DNA of 64,000 bases from an uncultured Cytophagia bacterium (GCA_964539665.1 CAZIKB010000003.1:60062-124061); one strand, 5' to 3'. Counted from the stretch's first letter, positions 4,090-58,183 are shown. Numbers and translations are program-made. The notes: generated from the sequence alone by a model not told the origin.

Positions 4090-4113
4090 AATTAAATAAT
4101 TGAGGAAATTGAA

Positions 4114-13691: not shown

Positions 13692-13692
13692 G

Positions 13693-22610: not shown

Positions 22611-22611
22611 T

Positions 22612-37248: not shown

Positions 37249-38628
37249 ATGTCTTTTAAAAAACCAAATATAATTTTAATTATGATAGATTGCGGGCGGG
37301 CTGATCATTTTTCTATTTATAATGATAGTAAAAATACGACTCCAAATTTAAAAAAAATAGCTGCGGAAAGCATGGTTTACAATAATGCTATCTCACCTGC
37401 CGGTTGGACCTTGCCAACCCATTCATCAATATTTACTGGTGTTTATCCCTCGCAACACGGCGCCCACAATGAAAATCATCAACTCTCAAATGAATACCCA
37501 ACGCTTGCAGAATTGCTTGTTGAACAAGGGTACAAGACTTTTGGAATCTGTACTATAGATTGGCTAAGTCAGGCTACCGGAGTAATTAGAGGATTCCAGG
37601 AATTTGATAACTTACATTTTAGTAAGTCAAAATTAATATTGAAAAGAATGTTACAATACCCCATAATTGGCGGGAAGGACTGCTGGGGATATGAAACCAA
37701 CAGAAAAGCGAAAAAATGGCTAAAACAAAATGATTCAGGCAATCCATTTTTTATGTATCTCCATTATAATGAATTGCATCTGCCTTACAACATACCTGAA
37801 AAAATATTGAAGAATTTTTTACCGGAAGATGTGACGGTTGCTAAGGCATTAAAAATTAATCAAGATGCCAAAAAATATTATGCCGGTATTGCAAAAATGA
37901 GTGCAGAGGATTTTAAAATACATAAAGCATTGTATGACGCCGGATTGAAATACACTGACGATTTAATAGGGCAATTGATTGATTTCTTAAGAAAGCAAGA
38001 TATTCTTGATAACACAATTCTTGTCATCACAAGTGACCACGGTGAAAGCTTAGGCGAACACGGACATTTTGACCATTATTACGTCCTTTATGAATCCCTG
38101 CTCCATGTGCCTTTAATGGTTAGATATTTCCCTGTTTTTGGCTCGGGAAAGTCAGATGCGCTTGTGCAAACTATTGATCTATATCCAACTTTATTACAAT
38201 TAGCCGGTGTACCAATTGAAAAATATGAACATCACGCTGCGTTAACCCTTCCCCCGGTTGGAAAAAATAAAGGGCGAGAATATGCGTATGCTGAACGCTT
38301 TCAGGATTTAAAAGGTTTAAAGGAAAGCTTCAAAAATCATGATTTATCACATTTGGAAAAATATGAGCAGGAACGTCTGACTGTTATTAGAGGCGAGCGA
38401 TATAAGCTTATTTATTCTATGCAAGGTCGTCATGAATTGTTCGATTTACACAATGATCCCCGCGAAGAAGAAAATATATTATTAAAAGAACCGGGAATAG
38501 CAGAAATCATGATGGATAAACTAAAAGAGTGGCAATCATCATTTCCATTAAAACAAACAGAAGGAGAAGAAGCATATTTTGATAAAGAGGCTGTTGAACG
38601 TCTAAAAGCATTGGGATATCTTGGTTAA
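37249..38628 (+). CDS. sulfatase-fold (PF00884-type) hydrolase/transferase, Thr nucleophile, no TM or signal peptide; LGY tail
   Basis: IILIMIDCGRADHF, TSDHGESLGEHG and ELFDLHNDPREEENI are family motifs. The FGly site reads T-L-P-T-H-SSIFTG instead of C/S-x-P-x-R. Ends ...AVERLKALGYLG. Confidence 0.8.
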   Translation: MSFKKPNIILIMIDCGRADHFSIYNDSKNTTPNLKKIAAESMVYNNAISPAGWTLPTHSSIFTGVYPSQHGAHNENHQLSNEYPTLAELLVEQGYKTFGICTIDWLSQATGVIRGFQEFDNLHFSKSKLILKRMLQYPIIGGKDCWGYETNRKAKKWLKQNDSGNPFFMYLHYNELHLPYNIPEKILKNFLPEDVTVAKALKINQDAKKYYAGIAKMSAEDFKIHKALYDAGLKYTDDLIGQLIDFLRKQDILDNTILVITSDHGESLGEHGHFDHYYVLYESLLHVPLMVRYFPVFGSGKSDALVQTIDLYPTLLQLAGVPIEKYEHHAALTLPPVGKNKGREYAYAERFQDLKGLKESFKNHDLSHLEKYEQERLTVIRGERYKLIYSMQGRHELFDLHNDPREEENILLKEPGIAEIMMDKLKEWQSSFPLKQTEGEEAYFDKEAVERLKALGYLG

Positions 38629-38684
38629 TTAATTATTACTTATCGACTAATCGATCCATGTATTAAAATTTAGCGAAGGTTAAA

Positions 38685-40538
38685 ATGTTTAATTACAATT
38701 CTGATAAAGTTAAATTACCTTATACATTTGCTAAAATGTGCAAAATTAAGGTACAATATTGTTTGGCGATAATGCCATTGTTTATTTTGTTTAATACGTC
38801 TTTTGCTCAAAGCCCGAAGCACAACTATCCTTTAATTGGATGGCAGACTTTTGGTGGAGCGGTCGATGATTTCTATGCTCGATTTGATCTTTTAGTAACA
38901 AAATCTTCAAGTAATGGTTTTGTAAAAAGATTAAAAGGCATAAATCCTGATATGTTAATCGTCTCGACTACAGACTGGAATACCGGGCGAGACATTGATA
39001 ACATGCCAGAGGAATGGTGGTTACGTGATTCAAATGGAAACGTGAAAATAATTTATGGCGGCTTTAAAATGGCGAACCTATCCGATCTTTGCCCAAAAGC
39101 TACACGGGGTGCATTTAGTGGGATGACCTATTCTGAGTATTTGCCTGTATTTTTGTCTAGTAGAATAGATTTAACCTATTTTGATGGAGTCGGTACTAAT
39201 GGCGTCTGGGGAAAGGATGGAATGGAATGGAATTGGAATCGTAATGAATGGTCTGATATTGACATTGATAATAACGGTGTCAATGATCATGATGAACACT
39301 CAAAAGATTGGTTCTTGACTCATTGGCAAGGTGGATTAGATGTCCTCATGTCAAAATTGCGTCAAATGATTGGACCGAATAAACTCCTACTGATAAATAG
39401 CGGGACCTCGCACTCCTGGGGCTGGGAGGAGTCCAATGGCATTATTGATGAAAAATTAACATCGTACTCTGACACTAAATTTAATTTAAATTATTATAAA
39501 GCCATTAAAAATGTGTCACAAAAACCTTTCATTACAGTTGCAGACGGTTTACCTTTTTATGGTAATCCAAATGTGCCGGATGAATCAAAAAATGATTATA
39601 TTGGTATGCGTTTTGGACTTGTAACCTGTATGTTTAATGATATATATTTCAGTTTTCAGAATATCCGGGCCAATGAACATTACTGGAGTTATTGGTATGA
39701 TGAATTTGATGTTAATCTCGGCAAACCAATTGGCCGCCCTTCTAAAATAAGAGAAGGACTTTGGGTGCGATTTTTTGATAACGGTGTTGCAATAGCGAGT
39801 ACAGATGGCTATTCTCAGGTTGTAACTGATTCTGATTTAAAAGGATTCTCTGAATATAGCGGACCTTATTATAGGTTCCTGGGAAGCCAAAATCCATCTT
39901 TCAACAACGGTCAAATATTCGATAGAGTAGAACTTGATGGACACATTCAGAGCTCAAGTAGAATTTTTGGTGATGGCATTTTATTGTTAAAAGAGCCAAC
40001 AGTTGTTGTTGCTGATATTATCATTGATAACAGTGATGCCGGTACTTCCCCATCAAGTTCTAAGGCTAAATTGAAAAATGGTTTTGTTCTTCAAACAGAC
40101 TGTAAATCTGGCTATGATTTTTACAAGTTACGCTGCTCAAGCTGGCAGGAAGTATACGGCTATGCCTATGCCCCGTCAGGAAACGGCGAAGCAATTTATC
40201 GCCCCAATATCGGCGTGGCGGGCGAGTATGAAGTATTCGAGTGGCATGGTAAAATGGATGGCGTTAATATGGCCACAAATGCAGTGTACAATATACTGCA
40301 TTCGAATGGACAGGATAGCAAACGAGTTAATCAATCTAATAACACCGGCCACTGGAATAGCCTGGGAGTTTATCAATTCAGAAAGGGCAGCGACCTTAAT
40401 GTGACAATAAAGGCACAAGGCGCGGATGGTTATGTAATGGCAGACGCTATTAAGTTTGTTAATCTTAGTTCAAAAGTAGAGCCTCCAGCGAATCTGTTGC
40501 CTCCGATTGGTGTTCGTGTGCAACAAAATAATAACTAA
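38685..40538 (+). CDS. secreted protein: putative glycoside-hydrolase-like TIM barrel (GHL15-like) + golvesin-like C-terminal domain (start may be 38736)
   Basis: Signal-like MCKIKVQYCLAIMPLFILFNTSFAQ. The N-domain resembles hypothetical GH-like families. The C-terminus (GEYEVFEWH...NTGHWNSLGVYQF...GYVMADAIKFV) resembles golvesin C-terminal-like domains. Both are recollection-based. Confidence 0.4.
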   Translation: MFNYNSDKVKLPYTFAKMCKIKVQYCLAIMPLFILFNTSFAQSPKHNYPLIGWQTFGGAVDDFYARFDLLVTKSSSNGFVKRLKGINPDMLIVSTTDWNTGRDIDNMPEEWWLRDSNGNVKIIYGGFKMANLSDLCPKATRGAFSGMTYSEYLPVFLSSRIDLTYFDGVGTNGVWGKDGMEWNWNRNEWSDIDIDNNGVNDHDEHSKDWFLTHWQGGLDVLMSKLRQMIGPNKLLLINSGTSHSWGWEESNGIIDEKLTSYSDTKFNLNYYKAIKNVSQKPFITVADGLPFYGNPNVPDESKNDYIGMRFGLVTCMFNDIYFSFQNIRANEHYWSYWYDEFDVNLGKPIGRPSKIREGLWVRFFDNGVAIASTDGYSQVVTDSDLKGFSEYSGPYYRFLGSQNPSFNNGQIFDRVELDGHIQSSSRIFGDGILLLKEPTVVVADIIIDNSDAGTSPSSSKAKLKNGFVLQTDCKSGYDFYKLRCSSWQEVYGYAYAPSGNGEAIYRPNIGVAGEYEVFEWHGKMDGVNMATNAVYNILHSNGQDSKRVNQSNNTGHWNSLGVYQFRKGSDLNVTIKAQGADGYVMADAIKFVNLSSKVEPPANLLPPIGVRVQQNNN

Positions 40539-41766: not shown

Positions 41767-41922
41767 AGAAGTAACCTTCCGATGGTTTATTAATATATAA
41801 ATTCCTGTATGTTGAGTTTAATTGATTTACACACTACATACAGTAAGTCAATAATCCTTCTGAAGGTTTTCAGCACTTAATCAACAAAGTCATGCACGTT
41901 TGAAAATTACCAGTAAAATTCT

Positions 41923-43731: not shown

Positions 43732-43767
43732 GTTCAATAATTTGAATATTTAAAAGGAGATAACATA

Positions 43768-45645
43768 TTGAATTCAAATTATTCCAAACAAAATAGCGTA
43801 ATTCATCAAATTAAGATTAGCTTTTTGGGGGGACTTTTGACCGGTATAATTATCGGTGGCTCTCTGGCAATTTATAACACCTGGTTTTTAAATTACTATA
43901 TTCAGAAAGGGCTAACTCATTTTGTCATTGAAATATTCAGTGAATATATCATTCAAGCCACTTTGGCTGCAACTTTGATCTTTTTATTTTTATTACCTTT
44001 TGTGGCTTTTTTTAGTCAAACCATTTCAGAAATTAGGGCCATTCGTCTGGCAAGATTCACATTAATGCTGGTCGGAATAATCTGGGTAATTGGCGGCTAT
44101 CAAATAAACAAATCTATCTGGTTCCCACCGATAGCTTCTGCGAAAGGCATTTTAGGAAACATGTTTTACAGTTTCATCTGTCTGGGATTGGCTTTTCTTT
44201 TATACAAAATAATGATGGCATTTCGTTTAAAACTGCCTTTGCCATTTGCTGGATTATTGCATAAATTATACAATGGCAAATTATTGAGTGCAATTGCGTC
44301 AATTTTTATTGTTGCGAATGGATGTACCATTTATCATCTCGCAAACCATAAACCTAATAGTCCCAATGTTGTAATTCTTTCGATTGATACGTTACGTGCT
44401 GATCATCTTGGTTGTTATGGTTATGAAAGGAATACGAGCCCAACTATTGATAAATTAGCCAGCGAGGGCGTTCAATTCTCTAATTGTTATGCTCAACGTG
44501 GTCTAACCTGGCCGTCACTAACATCAATAATGACTGCCATGTATCCGAAAACTCATGGAGTCAGACGCAATCAGGTTCCGCTTGACGGCAAAAATATTAC
44601 CATCGCCGAAATTCTTAAAAATGAAGGGTACAAGACCGGTGCATTTCTTGCAAATTATTATTTTTCACCAAATCGTGGTTTCGACACCAAAATGGGTGGT
44701 GAAATTGGCGATCTGGATTATGCCATCACGGGGCAAGCTTTAGGTTGGCTGAATGGGATTAATCCTCAGGAAGACAATTTTTTCTTGTGGATTCACTATA
44801 AAAATCCTCATTTACCTTATGAACCGCCTGAACCGTTTACAAATATGTTTGACTCAACTTATACCGGCCAGTACGATGGTTCAAGGAAGTCAGTCAATTC
44901 GATTTATGTGAATAAAACAGAACTCGAAGAAAGAGATCTTGACCACATTGTTGCACTTTATGATGCTGAGATAAGATCTACAGACAGCTATATTGAACTT
45001 ATCCTGCAAAAGCTCAAAGCCATGAATGTGTATGATAATACAATTATTGTCTTCATCTCTGACCATGGTGAAGAGCTTTATGAGCGTAATTATTATTTTG
45101 ATCATGCTTGCTCAATCTACGATGGTGTTTTGCGAATTCCTTTGGTCATAAAATATTCGGATGTTATTCCGGCTGGGAAAATAATGGAAAATCAGATTGA
45201 AAGTATTGATATCACCCCAACCATCCTCAATATTTTAAAAGTTCCTTTACGTGATGAATTTGAAGGTCGCAGTATATTTGGAATGATATTAGATGATTCT
45301 TCTGATGTATGGTTTCCTTCTTTTGCTGACCGCTCAATTGTCATAAATTCCATTCGAACACCGCAGTGGAAATATATTTATAATCCGGAAGATTACCATG
45401 CAGTGTGTGTAACTGGCGCCGTAGAGGATGATGGAGAAGGTTATGATGTTGAAATTGAAGAACTTTATAATATACAAACCGATCCGTCTGAGCAAGTAAA
45501 TCTGGCTGAGCAATTTCCGAATATTGCTAAAGAATTACGCGCAGAGATCATAAACTGGCTCAATACCAACAAGAAAGTACATAAAGAATATACACTGTCC
45601 AAAGAAGCAGAAAAAAGACTGCGTGCCCTGGGATACGTCAAATGA
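43768..45645 (+). CDS. sulfatase-fold (PF00884-type) protein with 5-TM N-terminal domain (LtaS/EptA-like architecture), Thr nucleophile; LGY tail
   Basis: TTG start after AAAAGGAGA. Five hydrophobic helices in aa 17-189. VVILSIDTLRADHLG, ISDHGEELYE, ELYNIQTDPSEQVNL. The FGly site reads T-W-P-S-L-TSIMTA. Ends ...AEKRLRALGYVK. Confidence 0.8.
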   Translation: MNSNYSKQNSVIHQIKISFLGGLLTGIIIGGSLAIYNTWFLNYYIQKGLTHFVIEIFSEYIIQATLAATLIFLFLLPFVAFFSQTISEIRAIRLARFTLMLVGIIWVIGGYQINKSIWFPPIASAKGILGNMFYSFICLGLAFLLYKIMMAFRLKLPLPFAGLLHKLYNGKLLSAIASIFIVANGCTIYHLANHKPNSPNVVILSIDTLRADHLGCYGYERNTSPTIDKLASEGVQFSNCYAQRGLTWPSLTSIMTAMYPKTHGVRRNQVPLDGKNITIAEILKNEGYKTGAFLANYYFSPNRGFDTKMGGEIGDLDYAITGQALGWLNGINPQEDNFFLWIHYKNPHLPYEPPEPFTNMFDSTYTGQYDGSRKSVNSIYVNKTELEERDLDHIVALYDAEIRSTDSYIELILQKLKAMNVYDNTIIVFISDHGEELYERNYYFDHACSIYDGVLRIPLVIKYSDVIPAGKIMENQIESIDITPTILNILKVPLRDEFEGRSIFGMILDDSSDVWFPSFADRSIVINSIRTPQWKYIYNPEDYHAVCVTGAVEDDGEGYDVEIEELYNIQTDPSEQVNLAEQFPNIAKELRAEIINWLNTNKKVHKEYTLSKEAEKRLRALGYVK

Positions 45646-47513: not shown

Positions 47514-47692
47514 AAATAGATCCGGGAGAGCGGAATAAAATTAATTCCCGGAATAGTGAATTAGAGCAGAAAATGAAAGCTATGGTTTTAGAATGGAGTG
47601 AGGCCATGAAACTCGTTAGTAAAAAGTCAGAAGGTACTAAATTAGATAAAGAAACCATCGAAAAACTTAAAAGTCTGGGATATATCAAATAA
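47483..47692 (+). other. displaced 3' segment of the 45855 sulfatase-fold gene (frame -1 relative to the upstream part)
   Basis: Translates NSQTGELYNLEIDPGERNKI...KETIEKLKSLGYIK*, matching the ELY(N/D)LxxDPxE box and LGY tail of the two paralogs. Junction is GATAAAATAGCC, an A4 run where A5 would restore the frame. Confidence 0.75.
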
Positions 47693-47833
47693 GACTGTTG
47701 AATTAAGGTCAAGTGCCATCTAATATTCTCAGTCGGGCGAATTCCATGGTTGGAAAAACGCATTCACTTCATTATTAGCCACGTGGCAGAGTGATTCCAA
47801 ATCAACGTACACTTCAGAATAAACCTAAATGAA

Positions 47834-47961
47834 TTGTCAAATTATGATTATAAGCTGTCATTTGGTTGTCATTAAGTCATCTGTTGTCATTGATTTAATG
47901 ACCTAATGACCATGAATGACATTGTGACTGAAACAGTAGTTCAGGTATACTGTTTGTCATT
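47834..47961. repeat. array of (T)TGTCA(T/A)T direct repeats and AATGAC inverted copies (putative regulator binding sites)
   Basis: TTGTCAA 47834; TGTCATT 47856, 47867, 47885, 47955; AGTCATC 47875; AATGAC 47897, 47905, 47915. Central palindrome GTCATT-gattt-AATGAC at 47886-47902. Spacings mostly 8-11 bp. Confidence 0.55.
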
Positions 47962-48211
47962 GAATATTGCAATGATAATCAGTAATCATTCCACTATAAT
48001 TGTTGCTCCCTTAATATTTTCCTCAGAAGTTAATATATCAGGCATTAAGCAAAAAATTATGAGAAGCTTTTGTTATACATTGTTTCATACTGTAACACAA
48101 AAAAATGTTGATCCGTTTTAAGACAATTATTTTTATGCCGATATTAATTTTGTAGTCGGTCTTTTTAAGTAAGTTCGTATTAATAAAGCACTAAATGTTT
48201 ATAATTTACAT

Positions 48212-48227
48212 TGGTATAAATTTTGCT
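48212..48227 (+). promoter_or_regulatory. candidate sigma-54 (-24/-12) promoter of the sulfation operon
   Basis: TGGTAT-aaatt-TTGCT with correct GG/GC spacing, ~64 nt upstream of ATG 48291. Confidence 0.4.
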
Positions 48228-48290
48228 AAAGTATTGCGACTGACTTCAAAAATGTTCATTATACGTGATATTAAGACGTGAGGAAAATAT

Positions 48291-48590
48291 ATGTCGGAAC
48301 AGAACCGAAAAAGAGTAATTGGTAAGGCAATTACTTATAGAGGACTTGGCACATTAGTTACTATATCAGTAATATATATTTTCACTGGAAAATTGGCGCT
48401 TTCATTTGGTGTCGGACTTGTTGAGGTCGTTGCTAAAATGCTTTTTTATTACCTGCATGAACGACTTTGGGAGAAAATATCATGGGGTAAAGATAAACAT
48501 CCTCTTGCTGGAATCCCTGTTAAAAAGGAGCTTGAACCTGAAGACAAAGTATTGCTTGAAGAGAGATTAAAAGAGCTTGGATATTTATAA
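48291..48590 (+). CDS. DUF2061-family small membrane protein with C-terminal LGY tail
   Basis: KAITYRGLGTLVTISVIYIFTG...KMLFYYLHERLWEKISWG is the DUF2061 pattern, a family I recall as linked or fused to APS kinases. Ends ...LEERLKELGYL. RBS GAGGAAA. Confidence 0.7.
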   Translation: MSEQNRKRVIGKAITYRGLGTLVTISVIYIFTGKLALSFGVGLVEVVAKMLFYYLHERLWEKISWGKDKHPLAGIPVKKELEPEDKVLLEERLKELGYL

Positions 48591-48611
48591 AAATCGAATT
48601 ATTGGGAGCAA

Positions 48612-50795
48612 ATGATGAATCGAAAATACTCGTTAATTACTTTACTCATTTTATTGGTATTCTTAATTATCGATGCACAGCCTGCTTTTGCATATATCGG
48701 CCCCGGCGCCGGTTTTGCATTTTTAACTTCATTTGCAATGCTATTTGCCAGTTTCTTTATGGCTTTTTTTACATTGCTAACCTGGCCTTTCCGGGTTTTT
48801 TTACGGTTTTTCAAAAGAAGAAAAGCTTTAGCCAGAGCTAAAACAGATCGGGTTGTGATTCTGGGCCTTGACGGTCTTGACCCAACTATCACAGAACGCA
48901 TGCTACAGGAAGGTAAATTACCAAATTTGAAAAAACTTAAAGAGCAAGGTTCTTACAAACATTTACAGACCACTTATCCAGCTCTCTCGCCAGTTGCCTG
49001 GTCAGCCTTTGCAACTGGAGTTAATCCTGGTCGACATAACATTTTTGATTTTCTTTCACGCAATCGATTCAACTATTTACCCGAATTATCCTCTTCAAAA
49101 GTTGGGTCTCCAAATCGAAAAATATCCCTGGGAAAATTCGAAATCCCGCTTGGCAAACCGATTGTTCGATTATTACGTCGCAGCAAAAGCTTCTGGACAA
49201 TATTGGGAGAGAACGGTATTTTCAGTCATGTACTTCGTGTACCAATCACTTTCCCACCTGAAAAATTTAACGGAGCGTTACTTTCAGCGATGTGTACTCC
49301 GGACCTCTGGGGAACGCAAGGCACTTTTTCCTACTTCACGACTGATACAACTAATAAAAAATTTAAAGAGGGAGGAGAGACTGCAGTTGTGAAATGGGTA
49401 GGCGATAGAATTGAGGGATTTATTAAAGGCCCTGAGAACTCCATTACTAAAAAGCATGAGTCGATGAAGCTCCCTTTTGAAGTAAAGATTTTGAGTGATG
49501 ACGAAATAGAACTGATAATAGAAAAAAAGAAATACAACCTAAAAAAGAAAAAATACACCGATTGGATTGAATTGAAATTTAAAGCCGGAATGGGGATCAA
49601 AGTACATGGTATTGCACGATTTTACCTGCTTGAAACCAATCCAGTTTTTAGATTGTATATGACGCCCATCAATATCGATCCGGAAAAGCCAGCGCTGCCA
49701 ATTTCTTACCCTTATTTCTATTCCGTTTATCTTTCTAAGTTATTCGGGAAATTCGCGACATTGGGTTTAGCGGAAGATACCTGGGCTTTGAACGAGGGCG
49801 TTCTTGATGAGGAAGCTTTTTTAGAGCAGGCATATCTAATTCATGAAGAACGTGAAAAACAATTTTTTCATACTTTAAGCAAAACCAGAAAAGGTTTGTG
49901 TTCAGTGGTATTTGATGCCAGTGATCGAATTCAGCACATGTTTTTCCGAACGCTTGAAGATGACCATCCTGCCAACCGAGGCAAAGAAACTGAAAAATAT
50001 AAAAATGTTATTGCCGATATGTATGAGCAAATGGATGACCTCGTTGGTAGAACCATGGCTAAAATAAATAAAGATGAGGTTTTTATTGTGCTCTCTGATC
50101 ATGGTTTTAAATCATTCAGACGCGGTATAAACCTGAATTCCTGGTTAAAAGCTAATGGTTATCTAAAGCTGAAAGACGGTAGGGAAGAGAGTGGGGAATT
50201 TTTTCAGGGTGTTGATTGGGAAAATACAAAAGCCTATGCATTCGGACTGACGGGTATTTACATCAATGTTAAAGGCCGGGAAAAGAACGGCATTGTCGCA
50301 CCAGGTGAAGAATTAAAAACACTCAAAGATGAGTTGATTGCTAAACTTTCCGGGATGTTAGATCCTGAAACCGGGGAAGTTGCCATTATCGAGATGTTTG
50401 ATAATAGTGAAATTTACAAGGGACCTTATACTAACAATGGACCCGACTTGATTAGTGGCTACAATAGCGGCTATCGAATTTCATGGAATGGCGCAACCGG
50501 GAATGTCAATGAGCAAATTTTTGAAGACAACGTTAAAGCCTGGAGCGGCGATCATTGTGTTGACCCGAGGCTTGTCCCCGGGGTGATTTTTAGCAACCAA
50601 AAAATTATGGCCGCTAAACCAGGTTTGATGGATATAGCGCCAACAGTTCTTGAATTATTTGGAATAACTAAACCAGGCTATATGGAAGGCCAGGATATCT
50701 TAAGTAGTGAACCAGAAGAGACAGCAAAAGATGAAGATATTCCCACCATAGTGCCAACAGTAAAAAAAACGGAGGTGGCTTCGGTCAATGAATAA
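48612..50795 (+). CDS. alkaline-phosphatase-superfamily protein (type I phosphodiesterase/NPP-like, COG3379-like), long form with N-terminal membrane hairpin
   Basis: VVILGLDGLDP, SPVAWSAFATG (Ser at the nucleophile position), LSDHGF, WSGDHC. N-terminus has two hydrophobic segments followed by RFFKRRKALARAK. Confidence 0.75.
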   Translation: MMNRKYSLITLLILLVFLIIDAQPAFAYIGPGAGFAFLTSFAMLFASFFMAFFTLLTWPFRVFLRFFKRRKALARAKTDRVVILGLDGLDPTITERMLQEGKLPNLKKLKEQGSYKHLQTTYPALSPVAWSAFATGVNPGRHNIFDFLSRNRFNYLPELSSSKVGSPNRKISLGKFEIPLGKPIVRLLRRSKSFWTILGENGIFSHVLRVPITFPPEKFNGALLSAMCTPDLWGTQGTFSYFTTDTTNKKFKEGGETAVVKWVGDRIEGFIKGPENSITKKHESMKLPFEVKILSDDEIELIIEKKKYNLKKKKYTDWIELKFKAGMGIKVHGIARFYLLETNPVFRLYMTPINIDPEKPALPISYPYFYSVYLSKLFGKFATLGLAEDTWALNEGVLDEEAFLEQAYLIHEEREKQFFHTLSKTRKGLCSVVFDASDRIQHMFFRTLEDDHPANRGKETEKYKNVIADMYEQMDDLVGRTMAKINKDEVFIVLSDHGFKSFRRGINLNSWLKANGYLKLKDGREESGEFFQGVDWENTKAYAFGLTGIYINVKGREKNGIVAPGEELKTLKDELIAKLSGMLDPETGEVAIIEMFDNSEIYKGPYTNNGPDLISGYNSGYRISWNGATGNVNEQIFEDNVKAWSGDHCVDPRLVPGVIFSNQKIMAAKPGLMDIAPTVLELFGITKPGYMEGQDILSSEPEETAKDEDIPTIVPTVKKTEVASVNE

Positions 50796-52782
50796 GATTA
50801 AAGTTGTATTTGGTATAATAGCTATCCTATTTTTAGTGTCATTGATTAGCTTATCTGTTTTCTGGGGATGCAAAAAAAGCAATGCAAGCGCAATTGAAAA
50901 AAAAGTGATTGTTATTGGCTTTGATGGTATGGATCCAAGACTTTTGTCAAAATATATGAGTGAGGATCGACTTCCAAATTTTACTAAATTAGCTGAAACG
51001 GGCGATTATAAACCGCTTGGTACAAGTATTCCTCCACAGAGTCCGGTTGCCTGGTCAAATTTCATAACAGGTATGAATCCTGGCGGACATGGCATATTTG
51101 ATTTCCTTCATCGTGATCCAAATACAATGCTGCCACTCTCATCTACATCAAAAACGGAAGAGTCTGGCAAATCAATAAAGATCGGCAAATGGGTAATTCC
51201 ATTATCGGGAGGGAAAGTAGTGAATCTACGTAAAGGGCAGGCCTTCTGGGAGAAACTTGAAGATTCAGGCGTCCCAACGACAATTTTCAAAATACCATCA
51301 AATTTTCCACCGGTAAAAACAGACGGCAAAGCTTTGAGTGGTATGGGTACTCCTGATTTACAGGGTACATTTGGTACGTTTTCTTATTATACGGACGACC
51401 CTCCGCCAAATCGCGACGATATTTCCGGCGGTGTGGTTTATCCCGTCAAAATACTAAACAATGAAGTAGAAGCTCAATTAACAGGTCCAGCAAATACATT
51501 TTTAGAAGATGCCCCGAATGCTACTATTCCGTTTAAAGTGTGGAGTGATCCCGAAAATCCTGTAGTAAAAATATCAGTGCAGGATCACCAGATTTTGTTG
51601 AAAGAGAAAGAGTGGAGTGACTGGATTCAGGTGAAATTTGATATTATTCCTGTTCTGGAATCTGTAACTGGCATCTGTAGATTCTATCTGAAAGAAGTAC
51701 GACCGCATTTCAAATTATATGTTACTCCGATAAACATTGATCCTTCAAATCCAGCATTACCCATTTCAACACCTGATGATTATGCAAAAGAACTGTACGA
51801 CCACTGCGGATACTTTTATACGCAAGGCATGCCTGAGGATACAAAAGCGTTGTCCTGGAATGTATTTGATCATGATGATTTCCTGAAACAAGGCTTGAAT
51901 GTACTTGATGAACGATTACGTCTTTTCAATTATGTGTTTGACACGTTTGAGCAAGGTCTGCTGTTTTTTTATTTTTCAACTACCGATTTAAATGGACACA
52001 TGTATTATAATATGATTGATCCTGAACATCCGGGGTATGATGCAAAACAAGCGCAAAAATATGGTGACGTTATGAGTAAGTTATACGAAAGCGCTGATAA
52101 AGCAGTTGGCCACGTACTCGAGCGAATAGATGAAAACACTACACTTATAGTCATGTCAGATCATGGATTTGCACCGTTCAGACGCGCTGTGCATTTAAAT
52201 ACCTGGCTAAAAAATGAAGGATACATTACTTTAATTGATGAATCAAAGCAAGCCGAAAATGAATACTTTCAGAATGTCAATTGGAGCCGAACGCAAGCTT
52301 ATGGATTAGGTTTCAATGGGCTTTATGTAAATTTAAGAGGTCGGGAATCTTATGGTTTTGTTGCTCGACGGGAAAAGAAAGCCCTTTTGAATGAAATTTC
52401 CGAGAAGCTTTTAGCTCTACGCGATCCCAAAGATAATACAAGAATTATCGAACGGGTTTATCTGGCTGAAGAAATTTATTCTGAGCAATATTTAGAAAAT
52501 GCACCTGATCTCATTGTCGGTTACAACCGTGGATACAGAGCTTCATGGGAAACGACAATTGGTAACTTTCCACTGGAATGGATTTCGGACAATATGGATC
52601 CCTGGAGCGGTGATCATTGTATGGCAGCAGAGCTTGTACCTGGTGTAATTTTATCAAATAAAAAAATAGACGCTCAAAATCCTAAACTTTATGATATGGC
52701 CCCTACAATTCTTAACGAATTTAACGTTGAAAAGAGTGACGACATGGTGGGGCAAGTGATATTCAACAACATAGTAAATTAA
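50788..52782 (+). CDS. alkaline-phosphatase-superfamily protein (COG3379-like), long form with single N-terminal TM or lipoprotein-like signal
   Basis: VIVIGFDGMDP, SPVAWSNFITG, MSDHGF, WSGDHC. N-terminus ILFLVSLISLSVFWGC. 8-nt overlap with the upstream paralog. Confidence 0.75.
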   Translation: MNKIKVVFGIIAILFLVSLISLSVFWGCKKSNASAIEKKVIVIGFDGMDPRLLSKYMSEDRLPNFTKLAETGDYKPLGTSIPPQSPVAWSNFITGMNPGGHGIFDFLHRDPNTMLPLSSTSKTEESGKSIKIGKWVIPLSGGKVVNLRKGQAFWEKLEDSGVPTTIFKIPSNFPPVKTDGKALSGMGTPDLQGTFGTFSYYTDDPPPNRDDISGGVVYPVKILNNEVEAQLTGPANTFLEDAPNATIPFKVWSDPENPVVKISVQDHQILLKEKEWSDWIQVKFDIIPVLESVTGICRFYLKEVRPHFKLYVTPINIDPSNPALPISTPDDYAKELYDHCGYFYTQGMPEDTKALSWNVFDHDDFLKQGLNVLDERLRLFNYVFDTFEQGLLFFYFSTTDLNGHMYYNMIDPEHPGYDAKQAQKYGDVMSKLYESADKAVGHVLERIDENTTLIVMSDHGFAPFRRAVHLNTWLKNEGYITLIDESKQAENEYFQNVNWSRTQAYGLGFNGLYVNLRGRESYGFVARREKKALLNEISEKLLALRDPKDNTRIIERVYLAEEIYSEQYLENAPDLIVGYNRGYRASWETTIGNFPLEWISDNMDPWSGDHCMAAELVPGVILSNKKIDAQNPKLYDMAPTILNEFNVEKSDDMVGQVIFNNIVN

Positions 52783-52795
52783 AAAGGAGTTTTAT

Positions 52796-52987
52796 ATGTT
52801 AGGTCCCAAAATTAAATTAGAAAAAGAATTATATGATCGAATTAAAAAATTTTCTGAAATCGCTGGTTATTCTTCTGTTGAAGAATTTGTAACTCATGTG
52901 CTGGAAAAAGAACTGTCGACAATAGATGACTCTGAATCAGAAGAAGAAGTGAAAAAACGATTACAGGGATTGGGATATTTGTCTTAA
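52796..52987 (+). CDS. 63-aa ribbon-helix-helix-like protein with acidic linker and LGY tail
   Basis: KIKLEKELYDRIKKFSEIAGYSSVEEFVTHVLEKEL has the strand-helix-helix pattern of CopG/NikR-type RHH domains. It is followed by DDSESEEEVKKRLQGLGYLS. Confidence 0.5.
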   Translation: MLGPKIKLEKELYDRIKKFSEIAGYSSVEEFVTHVLEKELSTIDDSESEEEVKKRLQGLGYLS

Positions 52988-53038
52988 AATATTTCATAAT
53001 TCCAATAATACCATAAATCCACGGAGTTAGTATAAAAT

Positions 53039-53869
53039 ATGTTGAATATATTGAACTATTTTTTTAATATAATTTTTAATGTTATATTTTTTCCATTTAA
53101 AAATATGGATCCGATCTGGGGCATGTTAGTGGTTTCGTTTGTTACAGGGATTGTGATGTTATTTGTTTTTAAGGCAACTTCCGATCAGATTGGTATTAAA
53201 AAAGCAAAAAATTTGGTAAAGGGCCATTTCCTGGCCATTCGACTCTATCGGGACGATATCACACTTATGTTTGTTACCATGAAAAATATTATCATGAGTA
53301 ACCTGCTTTACATGAAAAAATCTTTTCGCCCCATGCTTTTTCTAATAATTCCTGTGGGTGTCATTTTAATTCACCTTGGCACCAGGTATGAATTCCGGCC
53401 ATTCAAAGTTGGGGAGACAATTATTGTTTCCATACGTCTGGATGACAAAATTCAGGATCTGAATCTCAACAATGTTGTTTTTGAACTTCCAGATGGTTTA
53501 ACCTCCGACATGCCGCCCGTTCGAATTCAGCAATTACGGGAAATTAACTGGCGTATCAAAGCTGAAAAGCCAGGCATCTATGATCTGATTTTTAAATACA
53601 ACAACAGTAATGTAACAAAGCGACTTGAAGTCAGAGATTCATTGATACCGCTTTCGAAAGAAATTGCCCAGAACAGTTTATCTGTGACTCTAATGAATCC
53701 CGGGGAATCGAGTTTGCCCGGATCTTCATTCGCTTCTCACATTGCAATCGGTTACCCCAAAAGAGATTTCAAATTCTTAGGATTCAGTTTCCATTGGTTA
53801 ATTGCTTTCTTTGTTTTTAGTCTAATTGCGGCATTTTCATTTAAAGGCGTGCTTGGCGTTGAAGTTTAG
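53039..53869 (+). CDS. hypothetical membrane protein (3-4 TM helices + central soluble beta-rich region), family not recognised
   Basis: Long ORF with coding-like composition. TM segments at WGMLVVSFVTGIVMLFVF, MLFLIIPVGVILI and HWLIAFFVFSLIAAFSF. Confidence 0.5.
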   Translation: MLNILNYFFNIIFNVIFFPFKNMDPIWGMLVVSFVTGIVMLFVFKATSDQIGIKKAKNLVKGHFLAIRLYRDDITLMFVTMKNIIMSNLLYMKKSFRPMLFLIIPVGVILIHLGTRYEFRPFKVGETIIVSIRLDDKIQDLNLNNVVFELPDGLTSDMPPVRIQQLREINWRIKAEKPGIYDLIFKYNNSNVTKRLEVRDSLIPLSKEIAQNSLSVTLMNPGESSLPGSSFASHIAIGYPKRDFKFLGFSFHWLIAFFVFSLIAAFSFKGVLGVEV

Positions 53870-53938
53870 GAGATAATTATTTTAAAAAAACAATTTGCAT
53901 GTGATAGAAATCTTTTTTAATATGCCGGTTAAAAAGCG

Positions 53939-54775: not shown

Positions 54776-54798
54776 TTATAAAATATGAAAGGAATTAC

Positions 54799-57435
54799 AT
54801 GGAATTAATCGCACCTCACGGTGGCAAACTTGTTGATCAGGTTTTACGTGGCGAAGAACGTGAAGCAGCTTTGAACAAAGCTAAGCATCTAAAAAAAATT
54901 GCAATCAACGCAACAGCAATTTCTGATGTAGAACTCATTGCAGTTGGTGCATTCAGCCCATTAACGGGATTTATGAAACAGGCTGATTATGAAAATGTAG
55001 TTACGAATATACGTTTAGCAAATGGCGTGGTCTGGTCGATACCAATAACTTTGTCAGTTACCAGTGAAATTGCTGATGAAGTTAAAATTGACGAAGAAAT
55101 TGTATTAACCAATGATGCCGGATTGCAATTAGCATTATTAAAAGTTGAGGAAAAGTTTACTTACGATAAAACCCGGGAAGCGGAATTTGTATATAAAACA
55201 ACCGAAGAAGCCCATCCTGGCGTTGCCCGGCTTTACAAGCAGGATGATGTGTTATTAGGTGGTGAGATTAGGCTAATCAATCGGGTGCCGGATCAACCAT
55301 TTCCGGATTTTCGACACGATCCTGTTCAGAGTCGGCGTATGTTTGCCAGTCGCGGTTGGAAAAAAATTGTAGGATTTCAAACTCGCAATCCAATACATCG
55401 TGCGCATGAATACATACAGAAATGTGCATTGGAAATTGTCGATGGTTTATTTTTACATCCATTAGTTGGGGAGACTAAAAAGGATGATATTCCCGCGGAT
55501 ATTCGCATGCAAAGTTATGAGAGCCTGCTGCGAGATTATTATCCGCCAAACCGTACACTTTTAGGGGTATATCCGGCCGCCATGCGCTATGCCGGTCCAA
55601 GAGAGGCTATTTTTCATGCGATTGCGCGAAAGAATTATGGCTGCAGCCATTTTATAGTCGGTCGAGACCATGCCGGGGTTGGTAATTATTATGGAACGTA
55701 TGATGCTCAAAAAATATTCGATGATTTCAAAAAGGAAGAAATAGATATCACACCTTTATTTTTTGATCATACATTTTATTGCAAAAAATGCGGTGCTATT
55801 GTTTCTGACAAAACCTGTCCGCATGATCAATCTGAGCGTTTGATATTAAGTGGCACTCAGGTTCGTGAAATGCTCACTCGCGGGGAAGCGCCACCACCAG
55901 AATTAACCCGCCCGGAAGTGGCGAGTATACTGATCGAAGGTTATCGCAAAGAAGGCAAATCAGTTCAACCAGAAAAAAAACCGGAAGCCAAAAGAGCACC
56001 AGCTAAATCCGAACCAAAGGCAGCGGTTGCAAGGGCGTCTAAAAATGGCAAGCGGAAAGTATTTGTCATCGGCCTTGATTGTGCCACACCCGAATTGATT
56101 TTTGACCAGTACAAATCGGAGCTTCCAAACTTTCGGAAATTAATGGAAAGCGGTCTTTACGGAGAATTAGAAAGCAGCATTCCGCCAATTACCGTTCCAG
56201 CCTGGTCGTCCATGATGAGCAGTAAAGATCCGGGGCAGTTGGGCTTTTACGACTTTCGTAATCGTGCAGATTACTCCTATGAAAGCATGTATATTGCCTC
56301 ATCCAGGTCAGTAAAAACGGATCGGGTCTGGGATATTCTCTCTCGTTCAGGAAAACAGGTATCGGTTGTGGGAGTGCCTCAAACCTATCCTATCCAGCCC
56401 GTTAAAGGAAACATGATTTCTTGCTTTCTGACTCCTTCTACTGAAAGCCAGTACACCTATCCTGAAGAACTTAAATCTGAAATCCAGGAGTTGGTGGGAG
56501 ACTACATGATTGATGTGCCTAATTTTAGAACCGAGAACAAGGATTTGCTTTTGCGGCAAATTTATGAAATGACCGAAAAGCGTTTTCGGCTTGTTCGCTA
56601 TCTAATGCGGAAAAAACCGTGGGACTTTTTTATGTTTGTCGAAATGGGTACAGATCGCATTCATCACGGATTCTGGAAGTATATGGATACCGGCCATAAA
56701 AAATATGAACCCGGTAATCCTTATGAAAACTCAATAAAGGAATATTATAAATATCTGGATCGGGAAATCGGCGAGGTACTTGATAACCTTGACGACGATA
56801 CATCCGTTTTGGTGGTTTCAGACCATGGCGCCAAAAAAATGGATGGCGGTATATGCATTAATGAATGGCTCATTGAAAATGGCTATCTTATTTTAAAAGA
56901 GAAACCGGCTTCACTTATGCCACTGGAGAAAGCAGAAATAGACTGGCCCAAAACGAAAGCATGGGGCGCTGGCGGATATTTTGGCCGAATTTTTCTTAAT
57001 GTCCGCGGCCGCGAACCTGAAGGCGCGGTTGCACCTGAAGAGTATGAAACCATTCGGAATGAATTGATTCATAAGCTGGAAAATATAAAGGACGAAAAAG
57101 GCCAGCCATTAACTACCAGAGTTATAAAGCCAAATGAGGTTTATAAGGAAGTAAACAATATTCCTCCGGATTTAATGGTCTATTTTGGTGATTTGAATTG
57201 GCGGTCGGTTGGCAGTGTCGGATTAAATCGAATACACACTTTTGATAAAGAGCTGGGACCTGATGATGCTAACCATTCTCAGCACGGTATTTTTGTCATG
57301 CATGATCCACAAAATCCTGCAAATGGCAAGAGAATTCACGGCATGCAATTGGTTGATGTTGCGCCAACTATTTTAGATTTATTTGGTGACGAAATTCCAA
57401 ATGATATGATCGGTAAAGTTATCAGGAACAAATAA
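54799..57435 (+). CDS. sat: fusion protein: ATP sulfurylase (Sat) + Lys/Pro/Ala-rich linker + COG3379-like alkaline-phosphatase-superfamily domain
   Basis: aa 1-~385: [15 protein letters not shown] (HxxH), [30 protein letters not shown]. Linker [37 protein letters not shown]. aa ~421-878: [28 protein letters not shown]. Confidence 0.85.
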
Positions 57436-57461
57436 GGCGTTAGAGGAAACACGCTGAGGAT

Positions 57462-57494
57462 ATTTGCCACACACTTCCAGGGTGTGTGGCAAAT
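57462..57494 (+). terminator. perfect 13-bp stem hairpin between sat-fusion and cysC (attenuator or mRNA-stabilising element; weak U tract)
   Basis: ATTTGCCACACAC-ttccagg-GTGTGTGGCAAAT followed by CCAATTTTAAATT. Confidence 0.45.
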
Positions 57495-57559
57495 CCAATT
57501 TTAAATTAAAATCAATTAATTAGTTGTAATGATATAAATTTTATGGAGGTTTCAATTTT

Positions 57560-58183
57560 ATGAAGACATCTAAAAAAGCATGTACAATTTGGTTCACGGG
57601 TTTACCTTCCTCTGGAAAATCTACTTTGGCGGAGATGCTGGAAAAGGAGTTAAAAAACCGCGGAGAAAGGGTCGAAATTTTAGATGGCGATGTAGTCCGT
57701 ACGAATTTAAGCAAAGGCTTGACCTTTAGTAAGGAAGATCGGGACATCAATATCCGGAGAATAGGATTTGTTTGTCATTTGTTGACAAGAAATGGTGTGT
57801 TCGCAATTTCTGCAGCAATATCTCCTTATAGAAATATACGAGATGAAAACCGTGCACTCATAGGCAACTTTGTCGAGGTTTTTGTTGATTGTCCACTGGA
57901 TGAATGTATTAAAAGAGATGTAAAAGGTCTTTATAAAAAAGCATTGGCCGGCGAAATAAAGGAATTTACCGGCGTTTCTGATCCTTATGAAGAACCTCTC
58001 AAACCTGAAATTGTGATTGACGCCCACGGAGAAGAACCCAAAGATAGCCTTCAAAAAATACTGGCGAGATTAGTAGAATTAGGTTACTTATCCAATAACG
58101 GTCTTGATACATCTGACAAAGCATATTCTGATGAAGAAGAAGAGGTAGTGAGAAAGCGGCTGAGTGATCTGGGCTATATTTAA
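57560..58183 (+). CDS. cysC: adenylyl-sulfate (APS) kinase with a 30-aa C-terminal extension ending in an LGY tail
   Basis: P-loop [42 protein letters not shown]. The core ends ...[12 protein letters not shown], then [37 protein letters not shown]. Confidence 0.9.

Follow-up and report, generated by a model that had tools for sequence, protein, structure and literature searches.

Known short C-terminal modules and related helices

Marking many unrelated catalytic domains of a pathway with a single short C-terminal module is a described strategy, as seen in dockerin-cohesin, Hsp70/Hsp90 EEVD-TPR, PEP-CTERM/LPXTG and the PKS/NRPS docking helices. The tail described here, found at the extreme C-terminus of six gene products in the window (the whole 64,000-nt stretch of DNA that was analysed), has the same layout. 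However, it has no Ca-binding repeats of the dockerin kind, and unlike shared docking or sorting tags, it occurs in both the cytoplasm and the periplasm, with a receptor that is a candidate. It is also not a sorting signal of the PEP-CTERM, LPXTG or GlyGly-CTERM type, since it is without a transmembrane (TM) segment or a basic cluster and nothing follows the motif; there were no matches to NCBIfam sorting-signal models, and cytoplasmic proteins such as the APS kinase CysC and the ribbon-helix-helix (RHH) proteins carry the tail too.

Two kinds of known helices are similar to the tail. The native C-terminal helix of APS kinases (Synechocystis 5cb6, Aquifex 2gks and Thiobacillus 3cr8) finishes with [G/K]-[Y/F]-[I/L] at the chain end, and that of the window CysC reads LVELGYLS, with the same L-x-x-L-G-Y-L pattern as the tail. 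The tail may plausibly have evolved from this helix. The helix, however, is a part of the kinase fold, whereas the tail is a second copy with an acidic N-cap, placed on a disordered linker and attached to unrelated folds. The other kind is helix 1 of the UBA domain with its M/L-G-F/Y loop (...EAIERLKALGF...) and helix 1 of PG_binding_1 (PF01471, ...LQxRLKELGY...), which were the best matches when a tail-only profile was compared with 1.84 billion representatives. The tail thus resembles the first helix of these bundles as a self-capped amphipathic helix, but the two further helices are missing and the chain ends 1-2 residues past the Tyr; no tail-bearing protein has a Pfam match to either domain.

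A further system bears on a neighbour of the tailed genes. In the Oxa1 superfamily, the coiled coils are known to dock cytosolic partners, as that of Get1 does with Get3 (PMC5868721). Similarly to Get1/WRB, the DUF106/Ylp1-like Oxa1-superfamily protein that is fixed in this module has a cytosolic coiled coil. In contrast to Get1/WRB-Get3, there is no Get3-like ATPase or tail-anchored substrate here, and the tail of CysC tracks Phosphodiest (PDE) genes and not the gene of this protein.

Six proteins of the window share one C-terminal tail

The pattern L-x-x-L-G-Y-[ILVM]-x(0,1) closes 6 of the 48 ORFs in the window; at the composition of these 48 + strand ORFs, chance would give 0.0008 such ends. 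When the last 60 residues were shuffled, at least one match appeared in 22 out of 20,000 trials, compared with the six real ones. All six of the near-identical C-termini claimed by the sequence-only reading were located, each on the + strand and within a polysaccharide locus that activates sulfate. They are FDKEAVERLKALGYLG (38578..38625) on a soluble Thr-type sulfatase-fold protein without a signal peptide (gene 37249-38628), LSKEAEKRLRALGYVK (45595..45642) on a 5-TM sulfatase-fold protein (gene 43768-45645), LDKETIEKLKSLGYIK (47642..47689) on the product of a second TM sulfatase-fold gene (45855-47692, with the stop at 47692), LEPEDKVLLEERLKELGYL (48531..48587) on a DUF2061 two-TM protein (gene 48291-48590), DSESEEEVKKRLQGLGYLS (52928..52984) on a 63-aa ribbon-helix-helix protein, RHH-A (gene 52796-52987), and a 19-residue tail (58124..58180) on CysC (gene 57560-58183). 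The folds given to them by the same reading hold as well, namely, Sulfatase PF00884 in three proteins, DUF2061 PF09834, APS kinase and RHH. So does its assertion that no other protein is so tailed, as no further ORF of the window ends in this way, and the tail is absent from the roughly 40 glycosyltransferases, flippases, carbamoyltransferases and similar proteins encoded there.

The gene at 45855 had been called frameshifted, and indeed its tail is in frame only after a 1-nt change at the G-run 47494-47498, where one added G brings back the reading ...ARRGELYNLEIDPGE.... The codons of the Leu, Gly and Tyr residues vary from tail to tail among the six genes, therefore, the tail is not a repeated DNA cassette. 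None of the three sulfatase-fold proteins has the formylglycine signature C/S-x-P-x-R, the corresponding residues being T-L-P-T-H, T-W-P-S-L and T-K-P-S-T; their tail-bearing homologues have T/S-x-P-[ST]-[HVIL] at the nucleophile. The three proteins do, however, match the Pfam Sulfatase fold.

The tail is confined to sulfur-ester-related families

The tail occurs on eight families across 90 loci, which belong to Acidobacteriota, Gemmatimonadota, KSB1, Zixibacteria, Entotheonella and other groups. The motif scan of related loci gave matches concentrated at C-termini and on sulfur-ester-linked families: the motif occurs 83 times in about 1.2 Mb, 72 of them within two residues of a stop. No fewer than eight protein families related to sulfur esters carry the tail, over more than 10 bacterial phyla, the tail-bearing families being APS kinase, Thr-type sulfatase-fold, arylsulfotransferase (ASST) propellers, Phosphodiest-type, DUF2061 and two ribbon-helix-helix families, and every interpretable tail-bearing ORF is an RHH-A, sulfatase-fold, CysC, DUF2061, RHH-B, ASST or Phosphodiest protein. 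RHH-A carries it in 78 of 78 cases and the sulfatase-fold family in 21 of 24, and a locus usually has several tail-bearing proteins.

The tail is a unit of 15-19 residues, in which an N-cap box (hydrophobic-S/T/D-x-E-E) is followed by an amphipathic helix of 3-4 turns, a Gly cap, and the Tyr together with a hydrophobic residue. The Tyr is found in 224 of the 225 distinct tails, with Phe in none of them, the Gly is invariant (224/224), and the two Leu are as invariant as these. The Tyr is preceded by L-G and followed by I/L/M/V, with an acidic run 8-15 residues upstream, and the chain stops one or two residues past it in all 225 tails. The last residue varies by family (K, R, Q, N, D, S, G or hydrophobic), and the net charge averages -2.6 in the tails of CysC and -0.8 in those of RHH-A. 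The tail is retained even on sulfatase domains just 27-32% identical to those of the window. The sequences indicate that the tail is selected at the protein level and is ancient. It is unmatched by any Pfam or NCBIfam model, and we found no description of it in Pfam, NCBIfam, the PDB or the searchable literature, in agreement with the earlier remark that no function had been described. One 91-aa lipoprotein (P0253), a singleton on a 659-bp contig, is composed of a signal peptide and three tandem tails.

The CysC tail co-varies with neighbouring Phosphodiest genes

CysC of the window matches the APS kinase model NF002059 over residues 5-177 (268 bits versus a cut-off of 244), leaving its 30-aa extension outside the model. 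The sequence-only reading had placed this extension after an internal 12-residue segment (58058..58093, + strand) with the helix-Gly-Tyr pattern. The segment turns out to be the native C-terminal helix of the kinase fold, as the NF002059 profile ends at it, and so do the chains of the solved structures 5cb6, 2gks and 3cr8. In the AlphaFold2 model, the linker (residues 182-187) is disordered, with pLDDT below 50, and the tail helix (191-203) has a pLDDT of about 78. Among the best 120 homologues of CysC, 91 carry the tail.

Upstream of CysC, an ATP sulfurylase is fused to a cytosolic Phosphodiest domain (Sat-PDE, 54799..57435, +), and downstream, the ATG of a cytosolic 448-aa Phosphodiest enzyme (58183..59529, +) overlaps the CysC stop codon. 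The presence of the latter kind of gene co-varies with the CysC tail: a cytosolic PDE lies within 2.5 kb of CysC in 14 of 16 loci with the tail, versus none of six without (Fisher p=3.8e-4 for 22 loci, which are not phylogenetically independent). PDE genes often flank a tailed CysC on both sides, with overlapping genes; the two exceptions, in which a tailed CysC has no PDE in this range, are L010 and L088. In the syntenic relatives L094 and L095, CysC is tail-less, Sat is unfused and no PDE follows CysC, whereas the window has Sat-PDE, the tailed CysC and then a PDE with the stop/start overlap. In Sat/CysC-tail/PDE operons without the RHH-A module, a tailed RHH-B stands first.

The constant companions of the tails lie on both sides of the membrane

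COG3379/Phosphodiest paralogues constantly accompany the tails. One of them is cytoplasmic, the other is exported with a lipoprotein or Tat signal, and they are almost never tailed. PDE-A (48612..50795, +), a candidate tail receptor, has a signal-like segment, the sequence AYIGPGAG and a TM segment, and its catalytic domain is predicted to be cytoplasmic. Its paralogue PDE-B (50788..52782, +) carries a lipoprotein-type signal, and relatives in some phyla a Tat (twin-arginine) signal, hence PDE-B is exported and is a candidate receptor of periplasmic tails. The third companion is a membrane protein of 277 aa that belongs to the Oxa1/YidC superfamily (DUF106/Ylp1-like; 53039..53869, +), an alternative docking candidate through its cytosolic coiled coil. 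It adjoins RHH-A in 76 of about 81 loci, it aligns with MJ0480 over TM1-coiled coil-TM2 (E 8.9e-10), and the charged residues R68 and D73 in this region are invariant in the family. In the related loci, none of the core PDE-A, PDE-B or Ylp1-like proteins ever carries the tail. Some other Phosphodiest proteins do (L086, 18279-19946; L073, 18608-19888), which blurs the split between clients and receptors.

The tail of the DUF2061 protein is predicted by the positive-inside rule to be cytoplasmic. CysC, the RHH proteins and one tail-bearing cytosolic PDE have no export signal or anchor, while tail-bearing sulfatase-fold and ASST proteins of other loci have lipoprotein signals or TM anchors. The difficulty raised earlier for docking in a single compartment is therefore real, and sharper than first put, since exported and cytoplasmic proteins are both tailed. 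However, a conserved core in which one Phosphodiest paralogue is cytoplasmic and the other exported offers a natural way out.

A putative docking peptide and its alternatives

We tentatively favour, at somewhat less than an even likelihood, a reading in which the tail is a portable docking peptide that would clip its clients onto COG3379/Phosphodiest enzymes of the AlkP superfamily. As the tail resembles helix 1 of a three-helix bundle without the other two helices, it would need a partner surface. The clients would be APS kinase, DUF2061, Thr-type sulfatase-fold and arylsulfotransferase-type propeller proteins, some PDEs and the two small RHH proteins, all possibly serving a PAPS-linked sulfur-ester pathway. 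Inside the cell, the receptors may be the cytosolic PDEs of about 450 aa, the Sat-PDE fusion and PDE-A, and outside, the lipoprotein/Tat PDE-B; with Phosphodiest paralogues on both membrane sides, one tag is thus usable in both compartments. In the cytoplasm, docking would keep Sat, CysC and PDE together for the hand-over of APS/PAPS. That the core PDE-A, PDE-B and membrane protein are tail-less is as expected of receptors. The earlier suggestion of a docking, assembly or recognition role is thus favoured by the family restriction, the C-terminal position on a flexible linker and the co-variation of the CysC tail with PDE genes, with the interface itself still putative.

The strict Tyr exceeds the needs of a purely hydrophobic contact. 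It might instead be covalently modified by O-sulfation or another ester, as a regulatory mark or as an aryl-sulfate carrier for AlkP-type, sulfatase-fold or ASST enzymes, with the helix merely presenting it. This alternative, which we consider unlikely, would account for the Tyr invariance and for the tails on both membrane sides, and it suits a tail confined to sulfur-ester-linked families, including arylsulfotransferases with their phenol substrates, and a window that makes PAPS (Sat, CysC) and yet gave no Pfam match to a canonical sulfotransferase. On the other side, such enzymes are present in other related loci. The sulfation proposed by the sequence-only reading keeps its invariant Tyr but loses its adjacent acidic residues: the acidic run is distant, unlike in known sulfation sites of the TPST/RaxST type, which have acidic residues within a few positions of the Tyr. 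Furthermore, the Tyr sits in the helix cap between L-G and I/L/M/V, the equally invariant Gly and two Leu point to shape recognition, PAPS is unavailable outside the cell, and there is no clear reason for CysC or a DNA-binding protein to be a sulfate carrier. Docking could also take place on the Ylp1-like protein, where the tail would add a third helix to the cytosolic coiled-coil hairpin and tether the clients to the membrane. The match to MJ0480, the constant place next to RHH-A, the absence of a tail, the invariant R68 and D73 and the Get1-Get3 precedent (PMC5868721) all fit, but CysC-tail operons in L086, L091, L092 and L093 have no Ylp1-like gene within 10 kb, L094 and L095 have one together with a tail-less CysC, the CysC tail follows PDE genes, and periplasmic tails stay unexplained unless the extra domain between TM2 and TM3 binds them as well. 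We thus regard this receptor as quite improbable.

A similarly low likelihood is given to the tails binding each other, by which small helical bundles would zip the tail-bearing proteins together in each compartment with no separate receptor. In UBA and PG-binding domains, the motif forms helix 1 of the bundle, several tailed proteins per locus are usual, and P0253 has its three tails in tandem. However, P0253 is a single case, the helix has just 3-4 turns, PDE-A, PDE-B and the membrane protein are never tailed, and co-variation of the CysC tail with PDE genes is not predicted. That the tail has no shared function, being an intramolecular cap that stabilises its own C-terminus as a favourable and repeatedly arisen helix ending, is very doubtful. 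L-x-x-L-G-Y is a generic helix cap, and the resemblance could be partly convergent: the pattern closes ordinary APS kinases as well as Era of E. coli, it lies inside many helical domains, and the RHH-A monomer model confidently places the tail helix (pLDDT about 88) beside the protein's own two helices, therefore, the tail may pack intramolecularly in RHH-A. Nevertheless, only sulfur-ester-linked families among all the neighbours are tailed, the tail of CysC comes on a disordered linker behind the native cap, the tail is better conserved than the attached domains and is gained or lost along with PDE genes, and its number in the window far exceeds the chance expectation. A membrane-targeting amphipathic helix of the MinD/FtsA type, or a degron of the ssrA type, acting on either side of the membrane, seems highly improbable. 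The position is right and so is the amphipathic hydrophobic spacing, and C-terminal signals read in both the cytoplasm and the periplasm have precedents, such as the ssrA signal read by ClpXP and Tsp. However, the negative net charge is unfavourable for anionic membranes, the strict invariance of L, G and Y is unlike membrane-targeting helices, and the family-dependent, often charged last residue differs from the non-polar ends of ssrA-like degrons.

Ribbon-helix-helix proteins

Under the docking reading, the tag on the RHH proteins would have a separate use. RHH-A has the features of the ribbon-helix-helix fold, namely, an N-terminal strand, two helices (10-23 and 28-40; AlphaFold2 pLDDT 89.8) and a G-x-S/T turn, of which the AGYSS sequence is invariant. 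Its top Foldseek match is the RHH domain of NikR (1.8 Å over 41 residues), with omega and Arc also among the best and the antitoxins ParD, MazE9 and FitA among the matches. RHH-A and RHH-B share with RHH antitoxins (ParD, VapB, FitA and MazE types) the order of RHH domain, linker and C-terminal helix, but unlike in antitoxins, the C-terminal helix is also found on enzymes, and in place of an adjacent cognate toxin the neighbours are AlkP-type enzymes and the Oxa1-like membrane protein. In this antitoxin-like layout, a DNA-binding RHH domain may be combined with a partner-binding C-terminal helix, so RHH activity could report a free docking site. Of about 81 loci, 66-76 have PDE-B and the Ylp1-like protein next to RHH-A, and the identity of RHH-A across phyla is unusually high, with a median of 66%.

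A common C-terminal tail on six proteins of the locus

The window is one long polysaccharide locus, in which the sequence-only reading had claimed that six proteins end almost identically. A six-frame scan bore this out for all six: six plus-strand ORFs have an LGY that is separated from the stop by one or two residues. Three of them encode sulfatase-fold proteins, one soluble (37249-38628) and the other two with five N-terminal TM helices each (43768-45645 and 45855-47692); the remaining three encode a DUF2061 protein (48291-48590), a 63-aa ribbon-helix-helix (RHH) protein that we call RHH-A (52796-52987) and the APS kinase CysC (57560-58183). An extra LGY is internal to CysC, 31 residues before its end, and all other occurrences in the window are ordinary and internal. 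The composition of the 48 plus-strand ORFs predicts 0.0008 tail-type ends, against the six observed, and shuffling the last 60 residues produced any tail match in just 22 of 20,000 trials. The codons of the conserved residues vary from tail to tail, thus, what is under selection is the peptide rather than a DNA repeat; for the same reason, and because the window has no Rfam hit, a repeated DNA cassette or RNA element was ruled out. The tail is absent from the glycosyltransferases, flippases, polymerase, carbamoyl-phosphate synthase, carbamoyltransferases, methyltransferases and epimerases of the window.

In the gene at 45855, the reading frame shifts within five consecutive G (47494-47498). 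Adding one G restores ...ARRGELYNLEIDPGE... and reads on into the tail, giving an intact 612-aa tail-bearing protein. The frame change may be a homopolymer assembly error, a real frameshift, a pseudogene or a phase-variable tract.

Spread and conservation of the tail

The RHH-A family is very large and highly conserved: it has at least 995 matches, and at least 543 GTDB species representatives contain a relative, including Acidobacteriota, Gemmatimonadota, KSB1, Calditrichota, Entotheonella, Eisenbacteria, Methylomirabilota, Brocadiaceae, Verrucomicrobiota and Sumerlaeota; L56, G58, L59, G60 and Y61 are invariant in it. We surveyed 20 kb around each of 80 RHH-A genes using stop-to-stop ORFs (1.17 million residues), and found L-x-x-L-G-Y-[ILVMA] 83 times, 72 of them within two residues of a stop. 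Greedy gene calling was rejected as a source of denominators, being unreliable in high-GC loci. The tail is present on RHH-A in 78/78 cases, on sulfatase-fold proteins in 21/24, and, together with its linker, on CysC in 10/14; among the best 120 CysC homologues, 91 have linker and tail. It is kept in sulfatase-fold relatives whose domains are just 27-32% identical to those of the window. DUF2061 proteins are again carriers in related loci, as are two arylsulfotransferase (ASST) beta-propellers assigned by Pfam (loci L012 and L057), two Phosphodiest enzymes (L073 and L086) and RHH-B, a second small RHH family.

RHH-B, of which the window has no copy, was found at L011 1602-1835, L029 2324-2590, L043 1039-1296, L073 877-1113 and L091 8417-8647, with the signature VTIKIPRxLY...GF[SN]SxTDFIV[FY]V[LM]RD; these tail-bearing genes lie upstream of operons containing ATP sulfurylase (Sat), a Phosphodiest enzyme (PDE), tailed CysC and a further PDE. 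In locus L084, an ASST-like propeller (11200-14013, minus strand) has an internal copy of the motif, DPAELARLKALGYVP, as an insertion, and a sulfatase-fold protein (1807-4461) has an internal SSEELRRLRALGYVGGG followed by a 30-aa low-complexity end.

Structure of the tail

Among 225 distinct tails, the Gly is found in 224/224 and the Tyr in 224/225, never replaced by Phe; the chain continues for exactly one or two residues beyond the Tyr, the first being I, L, M, V or F. The alignment divides the tail into a hydrophobic residue plus an S/T/D-x-E-E box, forming a helix N-cap with a hydrophobic staple, an amphipathic helix of three to four turns, L-x-x-L-G as a Gly C-cap, and the Tyr with a hydrophobic residue. 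In the cytoplasmic carriers CysC and RHH-A it is longer and more acidic ([YF]-S-x-E-E-E-x-x-[IV]-K-K-R-L-x-x-L-G-Y-h) than in the exported sulfatases (h-[ST]-x-E-E-L-x-x-L-[KR]-x-L-G-Y-[IV]-x). The AlphaFold2 model of CysC, built from 61 tail-bearing sequences, has a confident kinase core, a linker at 182-187 (pLDDT below 50) and, at 191-203, a helix formed by the tail (pLDDT of about 78). Solved APS kinases stop at what is here the internal LVELGYLS, so this extension has no solved counterpart. RHH-A is modeled with pLDDT 89.8 and helices at 10-23, 28-40 and 49-58; helices one and two match NikR, omega, Arc and ParD in their RHH domains, and the tail forms helix three.

No Pfam or NCBIfam model, whether of a known domain or a sorting signal, covers the tail, and a profile search of the PDB with it gave nothing significant, the best matches being a basal-body protein (E 0.07) and the E. 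coli Era C-terminus ALRSLGYVDDL (E 0.4). A tail-only profile run against 1.84 billion representatives listed 19 matches at E <= 1e-3, the only level that this search reports, and these amount to repeat proteins and fragments rather than a genome-wide count of single-tail proteins: repeat proteins with the helix-cap motif (UBA helix 1, PG_binding_1 helix 1 and other repeats), CysC and RHH-A fragments, and a 91-aa lipoprotein consisting of three tandem tails. The tail sequence thus resembles the familiar first helix of a three-helix bundle, as in UBA and PG_binding_1, but here the chain stops after it, and it is always C-terminal and restricted to this set of proteins. The predicted lipoprotein (P0253, L090 155-430) has a signal peptide and the units ...ELRALGYID..., ...ELKNLGYMD... 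and ...ELRNLGYLK*; being a singleton from a metagenome contig of 659 bp, it was ruled out as a scaffold family.

Carriers on both sides of the membrane

It had also been pointed out from the sequence that the carriers do not all belong to one compartment, and this complication is real, since both signal-less cytoplasmic and exported carriers exist. Signal peptides are absent from CysC, from both RHH families and from the Phosphodiest enzyme of L086, and the DUF2061 protein is predicted to be N-in/C-in. Sulfatase-fold and ASST carriers in other phyla have an N-terminal lipoprotein signal peptide, a single N-in anchor or a multi-TM block, and the positive-inside rule predicts that the two TM sulfatases of the window have their catalytic domain outside.

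Companion genes of RHH-A

Four genes co-occur in the RHH-A loci: PDE-A, a Phosphodiest/COG3379 protein of about 720 aa (74 loci), its paralogue PDE-B of about 660 aa (66 loci), RHH-A (78 loci) and a 277-aa membrane protein (76 loci). In these loci, the tail is never found on PDE-A, PDE-B or the membrane protein. Three seeming PDE-B tails are stop-free reading frames running into RHH-A, and PDE-B/RHH-A fusions were ruled out as Rosetta-stone evidence, as such long ORFs are stop-free frames of high-GC genomes; only in L033 is the ORF in frame with the real PDE-B end.

At the N-terminus of PDE-A, a signal-like segment is followed by an invariant AY[IV]GPGAG and then by a TM helix with a strongly basic stretch, a layout that is predicted to place the catalytic domain in the cytoplasm. 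In the window (48612-48900) and the orthologues of L006-L085 it reads as a hydrophobic signal-like segment, an AxA site, Y-[IV]-G-P-G-A-G, a TM helix and a basic cluster, and it is an unusual and strongly conserved putative N-out anchor. PDE-B has lipoprotein signals or, in several phyla, RR[ED]F[LIM]K twin-arginine signals, and is thus predicted to be exported. The 277-aa protein (53039-53869) is a member of the Oxa1/YidC superfamily of the DUF106/Ylp1 type, matching MJ0480 (5c8j) with E 8.9e-10 across TM1-coiled coil-TM2 and EMC3_TMCO1 weakly, with about 130 additional residues between TM2 and TM3. The DUF106 group was described as archaeal and eukaryotic (PMC5868721); the protein next to RHH-A in these 76 loci is a bacterial member of this branch.

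RHH-A exceeds the other module genes in conservation: its median identity to the proteins of L006-L085 is 66%, a figure inflated by the choice of loci by similarity to RHH-A, compared with 52% (PDE-A), 47% (PDE-B) and 32% (membrane protein). Such conservation is uncommon in a transcription factor and hints at RHH-A being a structural partner of the enzymes.

Tailed CysC is mostly accompanied by a cytosolic Phosphodiest enzyme

A survey seeded from CysC instead of RHH-A showed tailed CysC genes flanked, in KSB1-like, Zixibacteria-like and other contigs, by genes for cytosolic Phosphodiest enzymes of about 450 aa; stop and start codons of the neighbours often overlap. The window has such a gene at 58183-59529, whose ATG overlaps the CysC stop, and its Sat carries a fused Phosphodiest domain. 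Two close relatives, L094 and L095, share the gene order of the window (PDE-A, PDE-B, RHH-A, Ylp1-like, methyltransferase, Sat, CysC, GT4, GT2, DUF2304, acetyltransferase); their CysC is tail-less, their Sat, of 386-387 aa, is unfused, and there is no Phosphodiest gene after CysC. Over all loci analysed, a cytosolic PDE lay within 2.5 kb of 14/16 tailed CysC genes (including L093, which the regex had missed) versus 0/6 tail-less ones (Fisher's exact p = 3.8e-4; the loci are not phylogenetically independent). RHH-B with the tail is found directly upstream of the Sat/CysC-tail/PDE operon even without the RHH-A module (L091).

A proposed docking peptide and its alternatives

Most economically, the tail is read as a docking peptide, with the COG3379-type Phosphodiest fold as its receptor; that it binds, what it binds to, and any consequences for channelling or regulation are what we infer. 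The tail would clip its carriers onto a COG3379-type enzyme, and the same tag would serve on both sides of the membrane because Phosphodiest paralogues exist in cytoplasm and periplasm. Both RHH proteins would then be antitoxin-style regulators, resembling RHH antitoxins in combining an RHH domain with a partner-binding C-terminal helix, but with a pathway enzyme instead of a toxin as the proposed partner. Against docking, the tail is found on some PDEs themselves, two loci with tailed CysC have no nearby PDE, the motif is a generic helix cap, and the modeled RHH-A tail may pack onto its own helices. A purely intramolecular cap is a lesser alternative, as are docking on the coiled coil of the Oxa1-like protein and bundling of the tails with one another. 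We disfavour a membrane-binding helix or degron, as the net charge is negative and the last residue variable.

Covalent modification of the tail Tyr is kept alive by its strict conservation. In one far-reaching form, which we consider very improbable, the Tyr is a covalent acceptor inside and outside the cell, and the Phosphodiest enzymes load it with sulfuryl from APS/PAPS. The loaders would be these AlkP-type enzymes, which have a Thr nucleophile and are either fused to or coupled with ATP sulfurylase and APS kinase; they would place the sulfuryl group on the Tyr of docked tails to give protein-borne aryl sulfates. Inside the cell these would report sulfate activation through the RHH proteins and CysC feedback, and outside they would be donors for ASST-type and Thr-type sulfatase-fold transferases. 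If true, this would allow PAPS-independent polysaccharide sulfation beyond the cytoplasmic membrane in a locus without a canonical sulfotransferase.

A C-terminal tag shared by the components of one pathway is a known concept, as in dockerins, EEVD, sorting signals and PKS docking helices. We found no description of this tail, its carriers, its probable receptor or the gene module in Pfam, NCBIfam, the PDB or the searchable literature, although such searches do not prove absence. Should the tail prove to be a docking tag, it would mark out a multi-enzyme system for sulfation that had gone unnoticed and is widespread in Acidobacteriota, Gemmatimonadota, KSB1, Zixibacteria, Entotheonella and further phyla that are mostly uncultured. 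The core enzymes of this system would be uncharacterised alkaline-phosphatase-superfamily proteins and not classical sulfotransferases, and enzymes and their likely regulators would, unusually, share a single tag that is used on both sides of a membrane. The tag offers a simple sequence handle (regex or HMM) for cataloguing the components in any genome, and an experimental way, by peptide pull-downs and tail deletions, into bacterial sulfation of extracellular polymers, which matters for marine and soil carbon cycling and for sulfated polysaccharide biotechnology.

Other enzymes and features of the locus

The window has four COG3379/Phosphodiest paralogues: the Sat fusion (54799-57435), PDE-A (48612-50795), PDE-B (50788-52782) and the 448-aa cytosolic PDE (58183-59529). 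A sequence search gave no solved relatives of the latter or of its paralogues. No ORF of at least 150 aa in this 64-kb PAPS-making locus matches a canonical sulfotransferase family, and for this reason the Phosphodiest enzymes may be sulfuryl-transferring or APS/PAPS-processing enzymes. The sulfatase-fold proteins (37249-38628, 43768-45645 and 45855-47692) are without the C/S-x-P-x-R formylglycine signature and have Thr at the nucleophile position (TLPTH, TWPSL and TKPST), a residue shared with tail-bearing homologues elsewhere. For the three proteins of the window, a role as transferases or hydrolases of the EptA/LtaS/NPP kind is more likely than one as classical sulfatases.

Two stretches, 29629-30785 (about 1.15 kb) and 47693-48290 (about 0.6 kb), have no ORF of at least 60 aa and no Rfam match, and interrupt an otherwise tight single-strand gene array. 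The polysaccharide locus also encodes carbamoyl-phosphate synthase small and large chains and two carbamoyltransferases (21552-27620 and 33947-35746), which suggests that its polymer is carbamoylated as well as methylated and sulfated.
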